Of a DNA stretch of 64,000 bases, positions 43,620 to 58,518 are shown in pieces. The position numbers and the translations under genes are program-made. Every line of letters starts with the position of its first letter. Position 1 is the stretch's first letter. The notes below the pieces were generated by a model, which worked only from the letters and a program-made list of their open reading frames with translations, had not been told where the DNA came from and did no database searches. This DNA is from an uncultured Gammaproteobacteria bacterium (GTDB lineage Bacteria; Patescibacteriota; Microgenomatia; JALYQM01), in assembly GCA_964525495.1 (NCBI GenBank), contig CAZGHS010000001.1, positions 102,263 to 166,262 on the forward strand. Direction: 5' to 3'.

Positions 43620-43737
43620 CAAAAGCATAATGAGCGTGATAAAAATAGCTATCATGAATTATAGTTTTTCAAACATTTTTGTCCTTCTTATTACCCACTT
43701 CTAAGGCGGGTCGGCAAAATGTATGAAAAAAGTCCAA

Positions 43738-43767
43738 GACCCGCACACAAGCGGGTTTTTTCGTTTT
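43738..43767 (+). terminator. rho-independent terminator
   Basis: acccgc-acacaa-gcgggt hairpin followed by tttttcgtttt, about 120 nt after stop of 42021..43619. Confidence 0.65.
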
Positions 43768-43888
43768 AGACGGTATTAGGTTCAAAACATAATACTCACT
43801 AAGGCGAAAAACAAGCCGCACGAGCGGATGGAGGAACGACCGAATGTCGGATTCTGTAAGAATTTCACAACAATACGGAGGGAATCCC

Positions 43889-44047
43889 ATGCAACTGATC
43901 GCAAAACTCTGCCTACTACTCATCGTCGCTGGCATCCGTCTCGAAGACGGGTACAACGACCATTGGCAGGACAAGAAGCCCAAATCTGCAACAAAAACAG
44001 CATCGACTTCCAAACAGACTACAAAAACCAAAGGCAAAGGCAAGTAG
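43889..44047 (+). CDS. hypothetical small membrane protein (52 aa) with Lys/Thr-rich tail
   Basis: start at MQLIAK preceded by ggaggga; one TM (LCLLLIVAGI). Confidence 0.35.
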   Translation: MQLIAKLCLLLIVAGIRLEDGYNDHWQDKKPKSATKTASTSKQTTKTKGKGK

Positions 44048-44092
44048 CCCAAACCAATTCACGGAGGGTCGCTCCTCTCATATTCTTTGATA

Positions 44093-44146
44093 GTTTCACC
44101 GCCAAGACGTTTTGTCTTTGCAGTATTTCCGCATTGGCGGTGAAAC
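44093..44146. repeat. perfect 13-bp inverted repeat gtttcaccgccaa / ttggcggtgaaac with 28-nt spacer
   Basis: read directly; intergenic between convergent small genes; no flanking T-run. Confidence 0.6.
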
Positions 44147-44296
44147 ATATCTTATCGTGCAACGCACTCGCAGGGACAACACTTTGTAAAATATATCCAA
44201 GAAAAACGATTAAGTTTTTCCCACGTATATTTATACATACCTAACTCATCCCTGCAGTGCAAAAGATTTATATATTTAAAACGTAAACAAAGAACC

Positions 44297-44662
44297 CTAT
44301 TTCTTCTTACCTTTTTTTCCGCTACTCTTCCAATCATCAGGATTAAAGCTTCCTCTTCGCTCTTCCGACGGGATGGATATCCTTCCACCGATTGGTCTAA
44401 TTGGTTCAACTATTGGCAATACCCGCTGTGTTTCTTCAGCAGGAAGCCCTCTATCGGATCGCTGGACACCATCACTAATCAACTTCTGATCACCAACTTT
44501 TCTAAATCTATTCTTAGCTCTAACTTCGTCGTTAGGATCAAGAGGACGCATTGGTTTCATTCGTGCATCTCTATCCTGTGCACCTCGACTACCACGATGT
44601 TCAACACCAAGTTGTCGTCCCTTATAAACAGTTTTATCACCTTCTGGATCAGCACCTCGCAT
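44297..44662 (-). CDS. hypothetical basic low-complexity protein
   Basis: 121 aa, Arg/Lys/Gly/Asp-rich, disordered-like. Confidence 0.35.
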   Translation of the reverse strand: MRGADPEGDKTVYKGRQLGVEHRGSRGAQDRDARMKPMRPLDPNDEVRAKNRFRKVGDQKLISDGVQRSDRGLPAEETQRVLPIVEPIRPIGGRISIPSEERRGSFNPDDWKSSGKKGKKK

Positions 44663-44731
44663 ATAATATCCCTCAACAATTTTTATGCCTCAAATTGTAC
44701 TGCTATAGAAAAATTTTGCAAACAGGAGAAA

Positions 44732-49838: not shown

Positions 49839-50699
49839 TCAAGCAGATTTTTTACGAACGCGTATAAACATCATACCTTCATATCCCCGAAAAGGATGTG
49901 CAGTTATCGAACGAATTACTATTTTTGAAATATCAAAACCGTTTTCCCCCAGGATCGTAATCATGTCGCTTTCATCAATCTTAATTGCAGGAAACTTTTT
50001 ACCATCTAACATATAGTATTTAGAGTTTTTTAAGCTGGTAATAAACAAATATCCCTTTGGCTTAACCAAGGCACTAATATTCCTAATCGCCTGCTCCCAT
50101 TCATCACGTTTTGATGTAATAGACTCTGGAACAAAGTTAACGCTTACCACATCATATCGCTTAAATTTATTATGTTTAAGCGAAAATTTACGAAAAGCAT
50201 TACACTTTACAACTTTCTTAAGTTTACTTTTGAGCAATTCCGCACGACGATAAACTTGTCCTGGAGTTACTTTCTTCTGACCTTCAAGTTCAAGTGCGCG
50301 ACGGATAAAATGATTCCAATTAAATGCTCGCTTATGAGCACGAATCCACTTACGAATTTCATGACGATTATGCTTTAAGTATTCTGAAAAATGAATCTCT
50401 GTAACTTTTGAAGCAGCACTTATCAAAGAGTATAAAGTAGGACCACCACCAAACTCCAGTACAGTCTTAACATTGCGTAAATGCTTATAATTTTTAGCAA
50501 AGAATGCGAGAAGCGCGTCATTTTCTTGATCAATAACGGAGTAATACTCTCTTAGGTAAGCTAACGAACCAAAAGAGTCAAATGACTCAAATTCTGAGTC
50601 TAGTGAATTAAGCTCTGATACGGTCGAACTTGAGCTCATAATACCGTACTTAACCTGGCTAGAATTCATAAGTTTTGGGAGTATAACACAAAAAACCAT
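49839..50699 (-). CDS. NNMT/PNMT/TEMT-family SAM-dependent N-methyltransferase homologue
   Basis: 286 aa; collinear with nicotinamide N-methyltransferase: AYLREYY (cf. DYLEKYY), LEFGGGPTLYSLISAA (LIDIGSGPTIYQLLSA), SEYLKHNRHEIRKWI (TDYSDQNLQELEKWL), LVKPKGYLFITS...KYYMLDGKKF (LLKPGGFLVIMD...SYYMIGEQKF). Confidence 0.7.
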   Translation of the reverse strand: MVFCVILPKLMNSSQVKYGIMSSSSTVSELNSLDSEFESFDSFGSLAYLREYYSVIDQENDALLAFFAKNYKHLRNVKTVLEFGGGPTLYSLISAASKVTEIHFSEYLKHNRHEIRKWIRAHKRAFNWNHFIRRALELEGQKKVTPGQVYRRAELLKSKLKKVVKCNAFRKFSLKHNKFKRYDVVSVNFVPESITSKRDEWEQAIRNISALVKPKGYLFITSLKNSKYYMLDGKKFPAIKIDESDMITILGENGFDISKIVIRSITAHPFRGYEGMMFIRVRKKSA

Positions 50700-51175: not shown

Positions 51176-53947
51176 CTACGGTGCCTTCGGCAGACTAAAC
51201 GCAAAGGTACTCCCTCTACCCAGTTCAGACTTCACATCAAACGTACCTTTCATTGCCTCAACATACTTCTTGCAGATATACAATCCAAGCCCAGTCCCTG
51301 TTGTAGCAGCAACGGTAGACAAACTACTATCAAGGCGGCCAAATTTCTTAAACAATTTCGGCATATCCTCCGATGCAACTCCTCGGCCAGTGTCAGCTAC
51401 ACCAATACGAATTTGCTGATCATGTTCTTCTATTGTAGTGATAATAGAACCTTTATCTGTAAATTTCAGTGCATTACCAAGTAAGTTTGTTATAACTTCA
51501 CGGGTTTTATCAGGATCACCGCTCACTTTTATACTTGGTGCAGCAGAAGTAAAAGAGAAATCAAGTTTTTTTTCATCAGATTTAATCTGCAATTCCTCAT
51601 AAACCGACTTCACCATATCCACAATATCAAAGTCAGAAATTGCAATTTGCACTTTACCAGATTCAATACGCGAAACAGACAACATATCGTTGACCAAATT
51701 GATTAAACGTTGTGAAGATTGTGAGACTCGCTCCAAATAATATCGCTGCTTTTCGGACAAATCTCCGCCTTTACCTGCAAGCAACATCCAGACATATCCA
51801 TTGATAGCTGTCATCGGGGTACGCAACTCATGAGACGCAATCGATACAAACTCATCTTTCATTTTGTCTAAGCCCACAAGCTCTTTGTTTGTTTCATAAA
51901 GCATTGTGTTTACAGACCGTGCTTCTTCATACAAATAGGCATTCTCAAGCGCAATCGCAACTTCATCCATAAACGCATCAAGAATATTATGTTCCTCAGC
52001 AGTTACATCGTGCGGATTCTTATGTAGCGCTAACGTCAACACTCCAAGCGGTTGATCCTTAGACATAATCGGGTAAATAATCACGCCTTTCATTCCAATA
52101 ATTTTCTGAATTCCATCCGAAATAATACGCGGTAAAACAGGTTCAAACGCATCAGCCAATGATGCAGTAATAACTTTCGTTTTCAGCATTAAAGATTGAA
52201 CAGCAAGTGATTTCTCTGAGTTCAGAGGCGTCTGATATTCGGAAATAGAACGAGGCACAAGCTTCAAGGATTTATCAATCAAAGGAGTTTTAGACACCGC
52301 CGTAGGAATAATAACGCTCTTCTTATAATCAACAATACTGATTATCGCGCCATCATATCCTAACTCCCACGCAATAGTATCTACTATCTTTTGAGACATC
52401 TCTTTTGGATCCAAAGTAGTCATAATAATTGAGTCCATTTTCCGTAAAATCTCAAGGTTTTTATTTTTCTGCTGAAGCTGTGAAGTGGCAATCTCTACCT
52501 CACTTTTAAGGCGTTCATTAAAATCACGAGAATGCATAAAAAGCATCACATTTTCAATTCCTATAGCCGCCTGCAAAGCAAAGGCCTCAAGCACATCCAT
52601 ATCCTGTGCCGAATACGAATCTCCCGAAAGTTTATGACTGAGCAAAATAAGCCCCATAACCTCGTTTTTAATGAGCAGAGGCAATATTACAACAATATTA
52701 TTCTTTGACATCCATTCAACAGTTTTTCGTTTGCGGGAATTATCCGTATTGGCCAATTCATCACGCAGATCATCGATAACCACGGCCTTATGATCTTTCT
52801 CAAACTGTCTAACCAGCATCTCACAGTCTGAAGCCTCAATATGCTCGGTATTGAACGTATACAACGCAAACTCGCTCGAACGAACGAGAACACGCGGCAT
52901 ATTATCCTGATTTTTAATCTTAACCGCAAAAACCATTCCCTTCGTGTGTAAGTTTTTATTCAACAAATCATAAATATTTTTTAAAGTCTCCTCAAAAGCC
53001 ACAGTAGTCGTAAGCGTTTGACCCAACTGATACAACAATTCAGCTGGAGTATACGCAGACTTATAAAAAAACTTATCAGTATACTGAGTAATAAGTGTTT
53101 TAAATGGATGAAATGTACTAGCGATTACCAAAGTGATACCCGCATAAACAAACAGCGATCGATAATCTACTTGTCCCTGCAGAAATACCACACTTGCGAT
53201 CAACCCAAGCGCAGCATAGATAACACCAAGCGAACTTAACAATAATGTATAAGCCACTGACCGCGCAGCAAACAAACGAATATCCAAAAACCGATGCCGT
53301 ACGATTGCATAGGCAGTCATAACCACGAAAGTAGGAACTAAAATATTCCCATACGGTGCTATAGGTATCTGGTACCACAACAAATAGTTTGTAACTCCTC
53401 CCGCAAAACTTATCAGCAACCCCCAAAACATATACTGAGATTGCTGTCGGCGAGTACCTGTTAATACGTTCCTATTAGCATAAAGTAAGTATGTCGGATA
53501 AATAACATAAATCATCCAAAGAACCACAAAAATATGAAACATTGGTCCAGGTACCGGCCAAAATGCAAAATCAAGTCGAGGTACCACATCACTCACAAAT
53601 AAATCCGTGAACAAGTTTAAGATAAGGAAAATGAAATACATCACTCCGCTAAGCTGCAAGAATCTCATTTTTTTCTGTAATAAACCCAAGAAAGCATATA
53701 CAAAAGTTAAATATGCGATCGGAATAAAGATAGCAAAATGCATTAATAGCCGTGTGTTATGCAAGGCATCTGCATGAGTAGTAGAAGTCTGCCAGAAAAA
53801 ATAGAACAAACTCCAAAAAGCAACTAAAAATGAATAAATTGCAAACGTTAAGCTAACCTTAGTCCTCTTCACAATGATGACAAATACACCAATCGCAAAA
53901 GTGGTTATAAAATTGATAAGCGCAGACAAGCTATAATACGTAAACAT
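51176..53947 (-). CDS. sensor histidine kinase with N-terminal 7-8 TM sensor, two GAF-like domains, HisKA and HATPase_c
   Basis: 923 aa; HisKA H-box FVSIASHELRTPMTAI; N, G1, G2 boxes (NLLGNALKFT, GVADTGRGV, GTGLGLYICK). Confidence 0.85.
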   Translation of the reverse strand: MFTYYSLSALINFITTFAIGVFVIIVKRTKVSLTFAIYSFLVAFWSLFYFFWQTSTTHADALHNTRLLMHFAIFIPIAYLTFVYAFLGLLQKKMRFLQLSGVMYFIFLILNLFTDLFVSDVVPRLDFAFWPVPGPMFHIFVVLWMIYVIYPTYLLYANRNVLTGTRRQQSQYMFWGLLISFAGGVTNYLLWYQIPIAPYGNILVPTFVVMTAYAIVRHRFLDIRLFAARSVAYTLLLSSLGVIYAALGLIASVVFLQGQVDYRSLFVYAGITLVIASTFHPFKTLITQYTDKFFYKSAYTPAELLYQLGQTLTTTVAFEETLKNIYDLLNKNLHTKGMVFAVKIKNQDNMPRVLVRSSEFALYTFNTEHIEASDCEMLVRQFEKDHKAVVIDDLRDELANTDNSRKRKTVEWMSKNNIVVILPLLIKNEVMGLILLSHKLSGDSYSAQDMDVLEAFALQAAIGIENVMLFMHSRDFNERLKSEVEIATSQLQQKNKNLEILRKMDSIIMTTLDPKEMSQKIVDTIAWELGYDGAIISIVDYKKSVIIPTAVSKTPLIDKSLKLVPRSISEYQTPLNSEKSLAVQSLMLKTKVITASLADAFEPVLPRIISDGIQKIIGMKGVIIYPIMSKDQPLGVLTLALHKNPHDVTAEEHNILDAFMDEVAIALENAYLYEEARSVNTMLYETNKELVGLDKMKDEFVSIASHELRTPMTAINGYVWMLLAGKGGDLSEKQRYYLERVSQSSQRLINLVNDMLSVSRIESGKVQIAISDFDIVDMVKSVYEELQIKSDEKKLDFSFTSAAPSIKVSGDPDKTREVITNLLGNALKFTDKGSIITTIEEHDQQIRIGVADTGRGVASEDMPKLFKKFGRLDSSLSTVAATTGTGLGLYICKKYVEAMKGTFDVKSELGRGSTFAFSLPKAP

Positions 53948-54072
53948 AGACGTAGTCTAAGTATAAAGTTATAAAATTACCTTATACAAGTGCTACGTCA
54001 AAAACACGCTCAATTTGACTTTCTCAACTATAAAAAATATAATCTATTATTATAGGATATTAAAACAAACTT

Positions 54073-54309
54073 ATGGCAGAAAAATTAAGAAAAACACCTT
54101 TAGAAGAATTCGAGGACAAACTTAGTCCAGGACAGAAAGCAGCCCTCGCAGGGGCTGGAGTTGTAGTTTTATATGCCACGGCAGGTATCACAATGGCAGC
54201 TGGAGCAATTAAAGATCGCATGTTTGGATCAGAAACATTTGTACTTGGAGAACCTAAAGATACTAAAGGAAATAGTCAAACAAATCTGACTCGCCGCCGA
54301 ACTCAATAA
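54073..54309 (+). CDS. hypothetical small protein
   Basis: 78 aa; one hydrophobic Gly/Ala-rich helix. Confidence 0.35.
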   Translation: MAEKLRKTPLEEFEDKLSPGQKAALAGAGVVVLYATAGITMAAGAIKDRMFGSETFVLGEPKDTKGNSQTNLTRRRTQ

Positions 54310-54313
54310 AAAG

Positions 54314-55645
54314 TTATTCTGCCCTTCCCTCTAAACACACAAACGACTGATCCATTTGCACGCCACACGATGGAAGAACAATCACACGAGTTAACTCGGT
54401 AGGTTTCCATCCGCCTTTCAAATGTGCCTCCACAAACTCGGCAGGAGTAGCTTCATACATCGTATACCAATCAAACCATGCCCTCAAAACTTCTTGTCCC
54501 GTATAGGAATGACCGTCCATATTAGATAATCTCGCAATATTTGCGTTACAATATGGAGCACCTGGCTTAAGATATTGTCTAATTGCTCCGGCATAATCTG
54601 CTTTAGATACAGAATTACGCACAAAGTTATGAGCATCGTCCACCCCACCATCAAAATAATCCGCCAAACCAACGGTTGTACAAATATCTAAACGGGTTTC
54701 AGGTGTTAATAATGGATGTCGTCCACTCATAAATGGGTCGTGTGGGTTTCCTAAATTAGCATAAACCGGCTCAATGTATTCCGAAACACCGTATTGTGCA
54801 GCAAGTGCGGCAATATATTGTAAACCGCCCTCACTAACATCAAGAGCAAACAGTTTAAGTGGAATCTTTGTTTCGCCTTGCTTATTTAATCCATCACCAA
54901 ATTTCTCACGCCACTCAGGATGCGCTTCAAATACTTTTTCTACAGCCTGAATAGCATACCGAAAGCTTCCTGCTGCAAAATCAGCGCCAAGTACTGCTTC
55001 TTGGGATTCTGAATTCAATCGAGTCTGTAATATTTCAGTTAAATGCTCTATATAAAAATTTTCAAAATGCCTAGCACGCTCTCCCACACCAACTGCAACT
55101 TCCCAAGTATCAAATACAGCAACTTCATCTCCAATTTGAATATCGCGCAGACTCAACTGTTCACCCATACGAGTACGGCGCATTGGCTTTCCTTGAGGAT
55201 GATAATCCAGCCAATCAAATTTGCCTTCACCTCTTGCACCATCAATCCCAGTGCGAGCAGCATTTTTCCGTAATGCTTGAGCTCCAGTAATAATCGCTTC
55301 CATCACTTCCCACGAACTTTTATGGCTAGCTATCCATGCAAGCAAAGGATACCGCTGAAATACTTCTTGTCTATCAAGCCGACCACCCATCAACTCATCC
55401 GAAATCCGAGATATCTCGTGTGAGGCATCAGTATTACGAGCATAATTTGTATCTGGACTCGCAAGTGAATAATCAATGACAGTTGGAACAACTACGACCC
55501 CGTATTCCTGACTGTTAACAACAATTGGAGGCAATTCCTGAAACCTAAACTCTGACAATCTGCGCAAAGGGAAATCAAGAATCCTAGCTTGATTTTGTTC
55601 AGGTTCAACTAATCGTAATGATGTTTCATTCGCACGTAATTCCAT
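54314..55645 (-). CDS. hypothetical protein (443 aa), unknown family
   Basis: long ORF with normal composition; preceded by a promoter and an SD-sequestering hairpin leader (see below). Confidence 0.6.
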   Translation of the reverse strand: MELRANETSLRLVEPEQNQARILDFPLRRLSEFRFQELPPIVVNSQEYGVVVVPTVIDYSLASPDTNYARNTDASHEISRISDELMGGRLDRQEVFQRYPLLAWIASHKSSWEVMEAIITGAQALRKNAARTGIDGARGEGKFDWLDYHPQGKPMRRTRMGEQLSLRDIQIGDEVAVFDTWEVAVGVGERARHFENFYIEHLTEILQTRLNSESQEAVLGADFAAGSFRYAIQAVEKVFEAHPEWREKFGDGLNKQGETKIPLKLFALDVSEGGLQYIAALAAQYGVSEYIEPVYANLGNPHDPFMSGRHPLLTPETRLDICTTVGLADYFDGGVDDAHNFVRNSVSKADYAGAIRQYLKPGAPYCNANIARLSNMDGHSYTGQEVLRAWFDWYTMYEATPAEFVEAHLKGGWKPTELTRVIVLPSCGVQMDQSFVCLEGRAE

Positions 55646-55674
55646 AAAAAAAACGCCTCCACAATGTGGAAGCG
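55646..55674 (-). terminator. hairpin + U8 immediately 5' of the ATG of 54314..55645; stem contains the GGAGG SD (attenuator/terminator-like)
   Basis: minus strand reads cgcttccacattgtggaggcg-tttttttt-ATG. Confidence 0.5.
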
Positions 55675-55753
55675 TCCAGATTAAAATCCGACAACAATAA
55701 AAATAAGACTATAAGCTCTACAAAAAAGTAGGTCTTTCATAAATAGGAAGGAG

Positions 55754-55782
55754 ATAATAGCACAAACAGACTTTAGTGTCAA
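55754..55782 (-). promoter_or_regulatory. consensus sigma70 promoter TTGACA-N17-TATTAT on minus strand
   Basis: rc of 55777-55782 = ttgaca; rc of 55754-55759 = tattat; about 100 nt upstream of ATG 55645. Confidence 0.5.
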
Positions 55783-55820
55783 TACTATAAGACATCATCT
55801 CTCCTTTTACTAATTACAAT

Positions 55821-55849
55821 AAAAAAATACCTACTCCATGGAGTAGGTA
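55821..55849 (-). terminator. rho-independent terminator (22-nt perfect palindrome tacctactccatggagtaggta + T7 on minus strand)
   Basis: read directly; downstream of minus-strand gene 55976..56263. Confidence 0.6.
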
Positions 55850-55975
55850 TTAAACTCAAAAACATTAATTCCAGCCATATAAAGCTGGTCGCACATGTGC
55901 ATTCTAATTCGTTTAAATATATATAACATTTCTAAGCACAGTATAATCTTAACCAAAGCATCACGCAATCTTAAT

Positions 55976-56263
55976 TTATTTTATAGGCTCATATAAACCC
56001 ACTGCATGATCATTAAAATTTCGATTTGCAGGCTGCCCCAGTTTCCATCCTTGTTCCACTAAATCCCACAAATCTTGATTTGGGTCTGCATCACCTGGCT
56101 CATACGGCCATGAACCATCTGGAATATACAAACTATCCGACCACCATTTATAGCCTTTTTCTAAAGCATTCACCGGGGTTAATGTAGTATCAATAACTAT
56201 TTTTTTCATAAATTTAGAGGTAAGGTGATATACCTCAAGGAGTAAGTATATCACCTTAAACAA
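55976..56263 (-). CDS. hypothetical small protein
   Basis: 95 aa; Trp-rich C-terminus; no family. Confidence 0.4.
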   Translation of the reverse strand: MFKVIYLLLEVYHLTSKFMKKIVIDTTLTPVNALEKGYKWWSDSLYIPDGSWPYEPGDADPNQDLWDLVEQGWKLGQPANRNFNDHAVGLYEPIK

Positions 56264-56289
56264 ACAATAAGTCGATCGCTTATCTTATT

Positions 56290-56595
56290 CTAATCGTCAT
56301 CTCGTGTCCTTCGTGCTTTCGGGCCTGCGGATCCTGAACGGTGTGTTTTCGGATCATAAAAATCATGTTGCCCTGAGTGCTCACCCCGGATATATTTCCG
56401 ATTCACTTGTCCATCTCGTTCCCGATAGTTTGTATGCACGCTCCGTCGTGACTCCTCCCTCTCATTCCGTCGGCGCTGTCGCTCCTCTTCGATCTCCCGA
56501 TCCACATACGACTTGAACAATTCGAACTCCTGGTAATCACCATAGTGCGACCTGCCCTTGTACGAACGTTGCTTCGGCCGGTACTCGAGTCCCAT
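56290..56595 (-). CDS. hypothetical highly charged Arg/Glu-rich protein
   Basis: 101 aa low-complexity (EEERQRRRNEREESRR). Confidence 0.4.
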   Translation of the reverse strand: MGLEYRPKQRSYKGRSHYGDYQEFELFKSYVDREIEEERQRRRNEREESRRSVHTNYRERDGQVNRKYIRGEHSGQHDFYDPKTHRSGSAGPKARRTRDDD

Positions 56596-56784
56596 GGACT
56601 TCCTCCGTTCGATTAGATTAAGGTGCGGATACGACTCTAGAGATTTAGTGTAAGAAAGAAATAAACATCAATTGTTTATACTTTCAAATGACTAAATTCT
56701 ATGAGTACTTATATTCAATCTAAAGGAGGAAATGAATGACAAAGCTGTCAGGATTTCTGCCAATATCGGCAAGTGAAAATATGA

Positions 56785-57417
56785 TCAATCTCCGTGATCT
56801 TTAAATACAGCCAAAGGAGTCATAATAAGGATTTTAATATCCATCAAAATGTTCCATTGTTCTGCATACTGAGCATCAAGCCGAATTCGCTCATCAAACT
56901 GTACATGGTTACGACCAGAAATTTGCCACAAACCAGTAATACCTGGTTTTACTGTCAAAGCCTTCTCAATATGATGTTTACTATCAGGATAGCGTTCTCC
57001 TTGCTCCTGCAACTCATTAGGTTTATACGCACGAGGACCAACAATACTCATTTCACCATTCAATACATTAAAAAATTGAGGGATCTCCTCAATATCATAC
57101 CGTCGCAAAATTCGTCCCACTGAAGTAACACGCGGATCGTTTCGCAACTTATACCCATTCTTTTTATATTCTTCAAGAAGCTCAGGGTGCGCTTTCCATA
57201 AGTACTCATCTGCATCGACACGCATCGAACGCACTTTATAAATCCGAAAAAGTTTTCCATTCAAACCAACACGTTCGTGAGAATAAATTAAAGGCCATCC
57301 AGACTCTAAATAGAGAGCAAGCATGCCGAGGAGAGTAAAGGGACTTAAAACAATAAGCGCAGCAAGTGAGCCCACAATATCTAACAATCGTTTCAGAAAA
57401 ACATTTAGCGTACGCAT
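56785..57417 (-). CDS. bacterial sugar transferase (small PglC/WbaP-C-type polyprenyl-phosphate phosphoglycosyltransferase)
   Basis: 210 aa; N-terminal re-entrant helix KRLLDIVGSLAALIVLSP, MSIVGPRAY and PGITGLWQISGRN motifs. Confidence 0.85.
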   Translation of the reverse strand: MRTLNVFLKRLLDIVGSLAALIVLSPFTLLGMLALYLESGWPLIYSHERVGLNGKLFRIYKVRSMRVDADEYLWKAHPELLEEYKKNGYKLRNDPRVTSVGRILRRYDIEEIPQFFNVLNGEMSIVGPRAYKPNELQEQGERYPDSKHHIEKALTVKPGITGLWQISGRNHVQFDERIRLDAQYAEQWNILMDIKILIMTPLAVFKDHGD

Positions 57418-57468
57418 TCGTAACCTTAACTATACTAATCAAAAACACCTGTTTCAACTAGTGTACTA

Positions 57469-58518
57469 CTAAGACGGAATATACCGCTGCAATGATACAA
57501 CATATCCCGAAAGCTGATCCACCAGTCCTGCTTCCCGAGTTCGAAATGCAATTTCTTGAGTTCCCATTTGCACCCCAGATTCAACAAAATTATGTGAACC
57601 AAACATTGCTTCCTTGCCGTCAACAATAAGTAGCTTAGCGTGAATCTTACGATCAAGATGTATAAACCGAATGTGTTTTCCATGTCGTTCCAGCGCTCGT
57701 TTAAAAACAATATAAAAATAGCGCAAAGGGAATTTGGTAAATGTCACATCATCTTCATTCGAGGTATAAATCGTCACATTCACCCCCTGCTTTGACTTAC
57801 TCAAAAGTAGTTCGAGCATATAATGCTCAGGCACCATCTGCGAAACAAAAACTATTTCTTTTTGCGCTTCGGTCACCAGTTTCACTGCCTCTTTATAAAT
57901 CAAAGATCTACCTTTTATTCCGCTATCCACCAATACTGTGCCGTATTTGTCCACACTAAAACTATAATCTTGAGCCGGACGTTTATCATTTACCTGTACG
58001 AACTGAGTTGCCAAAGCCTGAACCATATCAGCATTCTCAAACCGCACCATAAAATCAAGATTTTTAAACGACGCATCAAAAAAATTCATCCCACCCATCC
58101 AAGCATGATCGTCTACAATATATATCTTTATGTGATTCCGCCCCATCACAGGCAAAAAATGAATACCCATGAGAGGTTTGTTAACCTCAACAAAATGTAC
58201 ACCTCCTGCTGCCAATCGAGCAAAGAGCGCTTTAGTTTCATTCCGTACCGCATCTTCTTCAGCTAACAATTTATCATTAAAAGTCGGCAAAAGCCGTATG
58301 TTTCCATGCAAATACCGCTCAGTGACCCAATCATGATAGATACGGACATCAACGCCTCGCCCAGCAGCATCCAAGAGCAACGGCTCCAGAGAACTAAAAA
58401 CCTCTCCCGTCTCCATCACCATAGCCTGAAGCCAGATCCGCTTCTCAGCACGGGGTATTCTCTCCTTCAAATCAACAAGAAATTCTGAGGGATTTTGAAC
58501 TAAGGTCGGAAATTCCAT
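57469..58518 (-). CDS. phospholipase D-family protein with two HKD motifs (cardiolipin-synthase-like)
   Basis: 349 aa; HIKIYIVDDHAWMGGMN and HAKLLIVDGKEAMFGSHN. Confidence 0.8.
   Translation of the reverse strand: MEFPTLVQNPSEFLVDLKERIPRAEKRIWLQAMVMETGEVFSSLEPLLLDAAGRGVDVRIYHDWVTERYLHGNIRLLPTFNDKLLAEEDAVRNETKALFARLAAGGVHFVEVNKPLMGIHFLPVMGRNHIKIYIVDDHAWMGGMNFFDASFKNLDFMVRFENADMVQALATQFVQVNDKRPAQDYSFSVDKYGTVLVDSGIKGRSLIYKEAVKLVTEAQKEIVFVSQMVPEHYMLELLLSKSKQGVNVTIYTSNEDDVTFTKFPLRYFYIVFKRALERHGKHIRFIHLDRKIHAKLLIVDGKEAMFGSHNFVESGVQMGTQEIAFRTREAGLVDQLSGYVVSLQRYIPS

Follow-up and report, generated by a model that had tools for sequence, protein, structure and literature searches.

The subject of this analysis is the leader of a 443-aa gene in a 64,000-nt stretch of contig CAZGHS010000001.1 from an uncultured bacterium, the whole of which is referred to as the window. 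Judged from sequence, the unit of promoter, leader and terminator in front of this gene is genuine and is by its architecture a transcription attenuator. A promoter, a short open reading frame (ORF) and a terminator follow each other in a geometry that is conserved in nine copies of the module. With modest confidence, we regard the element as probably a ribosome-coupled leader-ORF transcription attenuator. Coordinates are positions in the 64-kb window, and the leader, its ORFs and the 443-aa gene are all read on the minus strand. The elements of the leader are the following (SD, Shine-Dalgarno; UTR, untranslated region; SAM, S-adenosylmethionine):

55791–55782, minus strand: motif 1, CTTATAGTAT, abutting or overlapping the −35 hexamer (combined feature 55777–55791)
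55782–55777, minus strand: −35 hexamer TTGACA, overlapped or abutted by motif 1
55762–55754, minus strand: extended −10 element from the scan for promoter-like sites, consisting of TG (55762–55761), c and TATTAT (55759–55754)
55740–55681, minus strand: leader ORF2, ATG at 55740 and TAA at 55683–55681, 19 codons, translation MKDLLFCRAYSLIFIVVGF, no SD, 5' UTR of about 7 nt
55715–55706, minus strand: motif 2, CTTATAGTCT, a direct repeat of motif 1 lying 76 nt downstream of it, inside ORF2, where it encodes (A)-Y-S-L
55677–55646, minus strand: putative intrinsic terminator, with the loop ATT at 55665–55663, GGAGG at 55660–55656 in the 3' arm and U8 at 55653–55646
54314–55645, minus strand: 443-aa gene, with an N-terminal region of unknown fold and a predicted C-terminal class I SAM-dependent methyltransferase domain at about residues 185–443

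The consensus promoter claimed in the original prediction was found as described, with the −35 hexamer and TATTAT separated by a 17-nt spacer. It scored 11/12 matches and was the joint-best promoter-like site within positions 53500–57500. From the spacing, transcription is predicted to start at about 55747, inside an invariant TCC (55748–55746), which would give a leader of about 102 nt up to the ATG at 55645, close to the 100 nt proposed earlier. The folding energy of the leader was better than that of all 200 of 200 shuffled sequences (z = −4.7). The region included 14 promoter-like sites where 12.3 would be expected by chance, and seven terminator-like sites against 3.1. These counts alone are not far above chance, and it is the unique arrangement of terminator and gene, together with the recurrence of the unit in nine copies from diverged genomes, that makes the locus more than a chance assembly. 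Among 55 crudely assigned gene starts in the window, only one, that of the 443-aa gene, had a terminator directly upstream. The promoter, leader and terminator hairpin claimed to precede the gene were thus all present in the window, and all three were conserved in related uncultured bacteria.

The copies were found by fetching the contigs of homologues and scanning two collections with a pattern that required the −35/−10 block only. Nine distinct copies of the module were detected in related metagenome-assembled genomes: the one in the window, single copies in loci L001, L004, L015 and L016, and tandem pairs (a and b) in L002 and L019. Over 520 nt, L014 was identical to L001, and L020 and L021 were identical to L016, and these were not counted separately. 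The genome scan gave 14 loci, of which 11 had no leader feature at all and represent chance matches to a strong promoter. A covariance model (R1) searched over the window and the fetched loci did not find any copies beyond the nine. The block CTTATAGYRTTGAC at motif 1 and the −35 hexamer was found in all nine copies, as was TGYTATWRT at a fixed spacing from the −35.

Wherever the contig was long enough, the genes following the leader (the cargo) were themselves followed by a HisKA_7TM-GAF histidine kinase of about 923 aa, and genes for PLD-like, FKBP and hybrid histidine kinase–response regulator (HK-RR) proteins recurred as neighbours. On the basis of this shared kinase and these neighbours the loci are orthologous. 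The kinases are 46–59% identical between loci and hence so diverged that neutral intergenic DNA would not be expected to align, and the leaders nonetheless keep their invariant blocks.

The GC hairpin with a U8 tract described in the original prediction was also there, as GGACGCTTCCAC-ATT-GTGGAGGCGTTT at 55677–55651, with U8 at its end and the ATG of the 443-aa gene following directly. In the window the hairpin has 12 pairs and a folding energy of −16 to −17 kcal/mol, while across the copies the stems range from −14 to −23 kcal/mol and are followed immediately by T5–T9 in 9/9. RNAalifold analysis of the nine leaders produced an 11-pair consensus stem in which five pairs were changed on both sides. 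Of the stem cells in the alignment, 90.9% were paired compared to 76.4 ± 3.0% in shuffled alignments, none of the 500 shuffles reaching the observed value, and the covariation score of the stem was 0.556 against 0.289. When the registers of the stem alignment were slid, only 33–65% of the cells paired. These comparisons argue that the stem is under structural selection, and by its sequence it is an intrinsic (Rho-independent) terminator.

The original prediction further held that the terminator sequesters the SD of the gene. The only SD-like GGAGG of the window leader does lie in the 3' arm, 10 nt from the ATG, but this arrangement was not conserved: the other copies either had no SD or had one that was not part of the hairpin or was too distant from the ATG. 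SD sequestration was thus rejected as a conserved principle, the GGAGG at SD distance within the 3' arm being specific to the window. The position of the downstream ATG was more uniform, 0–15 nt past the T-run in 7/9 copies. This leaves no room for a separate promoter, and read-through of the terminator appears to be the sole route into the 443-aa gene or other cargo.

Between promoter and terminator lies a conserved leader ORF, ORF2, which was missed by the original prediction and whose stop codon abuts the terminator stem. Its frame, which reads the invariant TAT-AGT of motif 2 as Tyr-Ser, was open in 9/9 copies over 13–20 codons. No stops were present among the 191 codons of this frame, compared to 14/182 and 22/190 in the other two frames. 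The chance of an open frame was 0.14–0.34 per copy, and the product over nine copies, about 5e-7, overestimates the significance because the copies are related. In seven copies the ORF has 19–20 codons and its ATG lies 4–7 nt from the predicted 5' end. The stop is found 63–67 nt from the predicted transcription start in all nine copies, and its distance from the stem is 0–9 nt in all nine (3 nt in the window), two of these values having been adjusted by eye because an additional small hairpin was present. The sequence of the peptide is less stable. Even where its nucleotides are conserved, ORF2 shows radical replacements such as I/N/M, and the variability of its codon positions did not support a conserved peptide product. 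The preservation of frame and position together with the loss of sequence is what a leader ORF acting in cis would show. None of the nine ORF2 peptides is encoded with a run of any single codon, the only invariant residues being Y-S, each encoded once.

The start codon of ORF2 would have to be used without an SD. SD-like motifs were found ahead of 13 of the 55 crude gene starts in the window, a low share that would be atypical of Gammaproteobacteria, and several of the window's promoters appear to give leaderless or near-leaderless mRNAs. An ATG near the 5' end may therefore be a usable start here, since the same module of promoter, CCAAA and near-5' ATG also fronts a bona fide enzyme ORF (the second promoter described below).

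Two experimental systems show what such a position of the stop codon can do. In E. coli, termination at tR2 fell from about 90% to less than 10% when a stop codon lying 28 bp before this terminator was moved to 5 bp before it, and this effect of stop position was lost once translation was uncoupled from transcription (PMC4824070). In the pil1 operon of Streptococcus gallolyticus, leader peptides ending 4 bp before the hairpin or inside it lead to read-through, and termination results when they end 28 nt or more upstream of it (PMC3894217). The distances of 0–9 nt found in 9/9 copies fall within the range taken as functional from these systems, up to about 10 nt before the stem or inside it (PMC4824070, PMC3894217). 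The geometry matches that of tR2 and pil1, and on this basis we propose that a ribosome finishing ORF2 prevents termination.

In detail, the strong sigma-70-type promoter (55782–55754) would start a transcript at about 55747, the first 60 nt or so of which would be taken up by the 19-codon ORF2 beginning about 7 nt from the 5' end. The stop of ORF2 would come 3 nt ahead of the putative terminator (55677–55646), which ends at the ATG of the methyltransferase-like 443-aa gene. With no ribosome close behind the RNA polymerase, the hairpin would form and transcription would stop in the U8, leaving an RNA of about 100 nt and the gene off. A ribosome keeping pace to the end of ORF2 would instead cover the 5' arm, so that the hairpin would be blocked, the polymerase would read through and the gene would be on. 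That ribosome would have a further effect in the window alone, where it would expose the GGAGG of the 3' arm and thereby couple translation of the 443-aa gene to that of the leader. Candidate signals are the translation capacity or coupling of the cell, or a factor acting at the CTTATAGT motifs.

Several points weigh against this proposal. The nine copies are not independent, as they represent about six genomes of a single lineage, and L002b and L019b are 95% identical. In L001 and L004 there is no near-5' ATG but only an internal one, preceded by GGGAG or GGA and giving 13–14 codons. The stop of L002a, 9 nt from the stem, is at the edge of plausible occlusion, and the ATG of the window, at +8, has a very short 5' UTR and no SD. 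Codon position 3 was not more variable than positions 1 and 2 (0.92 vs 1.11 bits), which leaves the open frame as the only coding-type evidence, and ORF2 has no single-codon runs like those of the amino-acid attenuators. The transcription start, the translation of ORF2 and its effect on termination are all steps that we infer. To our knowledge, tight coupling of transcription and translation is also not universal among bacteria.

The original prediction raised the possibility of an OFF-switch riboswitch, and the leader was also considered as such, or as some other ligand-binding RNA whose expression platform would be the terminator. That the leader is about 100 nt long, ends in a terminator holding an SD and folds better than its shuffled versions would suit such an RNA. 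At gathering thresholds, however, no Rfam family, tRNA or rRNA was found in the whole 64-kb window, an Rfam scan being one of the checks that had been suggested. When matches with E up to 10 were allowed for positions 55400–56100, the best sub-threshold scores were 23 bits or lower against cutoffs of 39–100, Phe_leader reaching 23.3 bits against a cutoff of 55. Covariation analysis of the nine homologous leaders, likewise suggested earlier, showed that the terminator helix covaries and did not detect a second helix. The approximately 65 nt ahead of the terminator, which is all that would be left for an aptamer, are AU-rich and poorly conserved, and they have no conserved pairing but only small hairpins placed differently in each copy. 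Neither was a conserved antiterminator detected when each leader was folded without the 3' arm, the 5' arm then pairing weakly and with different partners in different copies. With the terminator as the sole conserved helix and without an Rfam match, the riboswitch reading fails and an aptamer was rejected; we consider a ligand-binding leader extremely improbable. A classical attenuator with two alternative structures is not supported either, for the same reasons.

A stand-alone small RNA (sRNA) of about 100 nt, acting in trans while the downstream gene is expressed independently or by incidental read-through, had been offered as another explanation. A strong promoter and a strong terminator do bracket about 100 nt, and an analogous small unit lies immediately upstream. 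Against this, the leader has neither conserved structure nor a conserved single-stranded seed besides the terminator, the cargo appears to depend on read-through (no promoter fits between the T-run and the ATG), and an open reading frame is conserved. The proposed sRNA would be no more than the short transcript that the leader unit yields on termination. The two functions are not exclusive, as the short RNA left by an attenuator could have a role in trans as well, but an sRNA as the purpose of the unit seems very unlikely.

Besides the terminator and the frame of ORF2, the repeated motif is conserved, which the original prediction had not noted. Motif 2 follows motif 1 at a spacing of 76 nt, or of 75 nt in one of the nine copies, and the TATAGT of motif 2 is invariant in 9/9, the synonymous codons never being used. 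A literature search for the motif strings returned unrelated primer sequences only. A relaxed pattern of motif plus promoter had two matches in the window compared to 0.03 expected, one being the leader promoter and the other a promoter 5 kb away. This second promoter and an ORF that runs across the leader promoter are located as follows:

50717–50667, minus strand: second promoter module, CCTATAGTATTTACA (50717–50703), 17-nt spacer, (TGt)TATACT (50685–50680), cCCAAAactt and ATG 50669
55798–55718, minus strand: ORF1, strong SD AAAAGGAGAG (55808–55799), ATGATG (55798–55793), 26 aa, MMSYSIDTKVCLCYYLLPIYERPTFL, crossing the −35 and −10 of the leader promoter

The presence of a near-copy of the motif also at the second promoter suggests that it is an operator or an upstream promoter element. 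Control could then be exerted by a protein at the CTTATAGT repeats, with ORF2 incidental or secondary: a DNA-binding regulator, possibly a partner of the downstream histidine kinase, would occupy motif 1 and motif 2 (at about +33) and would activate, repress, loop the DNA or block the polymerase. Alternatively, an RNA-binding protein would recognise CUUAUAGUAU in the nascent leader and alter termination. In keeping with this, the 10-nt motif is kept at the nucleotide level with zero synonymous variation, its two copies stand 75–76 nt apart in 9/9 leaders despite the variable sequence between them, its recurrence beside the −35 of the second promoter suggests a small regulon, and all loci that extend far enough have a histidine kinase after the cargo. 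No regulator gene is conserved beside the element, however, and the second promoter lacks motif 2. Protein-mediated control also leaves unexplained why the ORF2 frame is open in 9/9 copies with its stop always at the stem. As the sole mechanism it therefore appears rather unlikely, and it would be compatible with the attenuator as an added layer.

The ATG at 50669, about 10 nt past the −10 of the second promoter, corresponds in frame to Met-11 of an NNMT/GntF-like methyltransferase ORF at 49839–50699 on the minus strand, which matched NCBIfam NF041360 (GntF, guanitoxin pre-guanitoxin N-methyltransferase) with 116 bits (cutoff 60). The longest-ORF start of this NNMT/PNMT-like gene, 50699, falls inside the spacer of its own promoter. 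NNMT structures align from query residue 31–42 or so, compatible with either Met-11 or Met-21 as the start. The true start of the gene is more likely ATG 50669.

ORF1 has an ATG just 5' of motif 1 in 8/9 copies, and its frame was, by eye, open to motif 2 or near it in 7/9. Only 7–10 codons of it remain in L002b and L019b, and the promoter motifs dictate most of its codons; for these reasons ORF1 is unproven.

The protein encoded by the 443-aa gene had been described as having no recognisable family. This held for family databases, as it did not match any family in Pfam or NCBIfam, but the fold is recognisable. A word-index search of 5.8 billion clusters found only the protein itself, while an exhaustive HMMER search of 1.84 billion representatives detected three remote homologues of similar length with 26–32% identity. 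A profile search for further members of the family did not add any. In the four-way alignment the identities were 22–27%, the N-terminus aligned with those of the homologues, and G-x-D-x-A-A-G (the SAM motif), S-S-G-x-x-D-Y and related motifs were common to the four sequences. AlphaFold2 was confident for the C-terminal half only, with a predicted local distance difference test (pLDDT) score of 80–94 in the core, and a Foldseek search of the PDB with the model identified CouO, NovO, FPP-MT, SgvM and TleD (E about 1e-7, probability 1.00). According to the model, the C-terminal half of the 443-aa protein has the fold of class I SAM-dependent methyltransferases, of the type that acts on natural products or small molecules.

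The cargo differs between the loci. In the window, L001 and L004, a member of the 443-aa family stands alone between leader and kinase. The L002b and L019b leaders are followed by a FabD-like acyltransferase, a UbiE-like methyltransferase and a 445-aa protein, and those of L002a and L019a by a protein of 64–66 aa. In L015 (3667–5819) and L016/L020 (10001–12119) the cargo consists of a 304–306-aa protein without a family followed by a ThiF/E1-like protein of about 400 aa. The search with the 304-aa protein retrieved only three clusters. The cargo slot looks cassette-like. In L016, a 355-aa protein with a helix-turn-helix-like N-terminus is encoded upstream, and by eye its C-terminal part resembles part of the 304-aa protein. 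In the window, a 78-aa gene on the opposite strand (54073–54309, plus strand) with its own promoter, TTGACT-17-TATAAT at 54015–54043, lies between the 443-aa gene and the kinase. This intervening gene makes a simple co-transcription of the window kinase and the 443-aa gene improbable. In other genomes the gap between the 443-aa-type gene and the kinase is just 28–55 nt.

Lantibiotic structural genes and mccA also consist of a small ORF followed by a terminator and then by enzyme genes. By this comparison ORF2 would be a peptide gene, for a precursor or a signal: a leaky terminator would set a high ratio of peptide to enzyme mRNA, and the peptide, once modified by the variable enzymes, would be detected by the 7TM-GAF kinase. 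The likeness to the mccA-mccB and nisA-type operons lies in a tiny ORF with its own promoter, a hairpin and enzymes (methyltransferases, a FabD-like acyltransferase and, in two genomes, a ThiF-like protein), with a sensor kinase thereafter. The cargo enzymes are of the natural-product type, and the module occurs twice in tandem in both L002 and L019. Unlike in those operons, ORF2 is not conserved as a protein, as seen in its I/N/M replacements and the missing excess of variation at codon position 3, and its stop abuts the stem in every copy. Its C-terminal residue is not conserved, and only two of the nine peptides end in the Asn expected of an MccA-like peptide. The matches of the ThiF-like protein in the PDB were weak and of the generic E1 type (SUMO E1, Uba4, MoeB), with no specific similarity to MccB. 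Moreover, the tail of the peptide does not co-vary with the type of cargo, and the start codon has no SD. An MccA/MccB-type unit was consequently not supported, and a peptide gene of any kind is in our judgement unlikely.

If the leader is indeed a ribosome-coupled attenuator, it would work like the coupling-type attenuators of pyrBI, pyrE and pil1. It belongs to no described family, as it has no sequence or Rfam similarity to them, no regulatory codon run, no antiterminator and different cargo. The pyrBI and pyrE (rph-pyrE) leaders of E. coli are coupling-dependent attenuators without an antiterminator. In common with them, the leader of the window is U-rich, lacks an antiterminator helix and has a leader ORF that ends at or in an intrinsic terminator just ahead of the structural gene, and read-through would, as proposed here, depend on a ribosome close behind the RNA polymerase. 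It differs from them in that its cargo does not consist of pyr genes, its leader ORF is near-leaderless without an SD, its sequence is not similar and it has the additional conserved pair of motifs. The pyrBI attenuator is discussed in PMC4824070.

The order of promoter, leader peptide ORF, terminator (−18.7 kcal/mol in pil) and first gene is likewise that of the pil1 and pil3 loci of S. gallolyticus (PMC3894217), and the geometry that gives read-through in pil1, with the stop 4 bp before the hairpin or inside it, is seen in all nine copies. In pil1 the position of the stop is switched by phase-variable GCAGA repeats, while here it is fixed and no tandem repeats were found by eye in the nine leader sequences. 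Regulation must therefore act on translation or coupling and not on the length of the ORF.

The short ORF, intrinsic terminator and first gene, and a peptide rich in I, L and F, are features shared with trpL, hisL, pheL, ilvL and leuL, but tandem regulatory codons, a conserved 2:3 antiterminator and amino-acid biosynthetic cargo are all lacking. Mycobacteria are reported to have very short or leaderless upstream ORFs whose polycysteine tracts sense cysteine and which act as cis attenuators of operons (bioRxiv 10.1101/834739). The element resembles these in its very short, near-leaderless ORF, but it has no codon run, and it has an explicit intrinsic terminator.

The small unit immediately upstream of the leader, likewise missed by the original prediction, is built in a similar way:

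55968–55819, minus strand: upstream unit, promoter-like TTGCGT (55968–55963), 17-nt spacer, TATACT (55945–55940), and ORF0 (55929–55831, 32 aa)
55888–55871, minus strand: GC hairpin of the upstream unit
55851–55826, minus strand: putative terminator hairpin CCTACTC-N4-GAGTAGG of the upstream unit, followed by a T-run

The unit is present in seven copies. Its promoter-like block and the CCTACTC/GAGTAGG stem are conserved in 7/7, the stem being identical in all while its surroundings are unalignable, and the stem pattern is unique in the window. ORF0, which starts from the first ATG of the predicted transcript, at or near its 5' end, has 24–45 codons; a length of at least 24 codons, found in 7/7 copies, has a chance of about 0.1 in each. 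The invariant stem can be read as Y-S-[IVM]-E-stop, but a coding origin was rejected, as it lies in the ORF0 frame in just 2/7 copies.

Taken together with the leader, this unit allows a wider reading, in which the locus is a portable, multi-tier control cassette of a hitherto undescribed kind: two tandem units of promoter, near-leaderless micro-ORF and terminator, sharing an operator-like motif that serves both next to the −35 and within the transcribed leader, would gate swappable enzymes that modify small molecules ahead of the 7TM-GAF kinase. In its strongest version ORF2, and perhaps ORF0, would be both a cis attenuator and a signal precursor. We hold this to be quite improbable. If the strongest version were true, it would describe a quorum-sensing-like peptide circuit in an uncultured lineage, with the enzymes modifying the signal and the kinase sensing it.

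Elsewhere in the window, about 1.1 kb at 43620–44730 contain no convincing ORF. The ORFs of both strands overlap there and their translations are rich in Arg, Ser and Pro; the GC content is 0.45–0.47 compared to about 0.39, and no Rfam or tRNA match was found.

Attenuators made of a leader ORF and a terminator are well known in model bacteria, but families defined solely on the basis of metagenome-assembled genomes are few, and Rfam does not contain this one. Read as a ribosome-coupled attenuator, the element would be an example of about 150 nt in which the terminator is the sole conserved RNA structure and a ribosome on a near-leaderless 19-codon ORF its only plausible antagonist, and thus a clean system for asking how much regulation the coupling of transcription and translation alone provides. 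It would also mark a small regulon beside a 7TM-GAF histidine kinase, made up of methyltransferases of the natural-product type together with an acyltransferase and a ThiF-like enzyme, and would offer a way to learn when these orphan enzymes are produced. As specific sequences, the shared CTTATAGT motif and the invariant upstream hairpin could serve as bait for the regulator.

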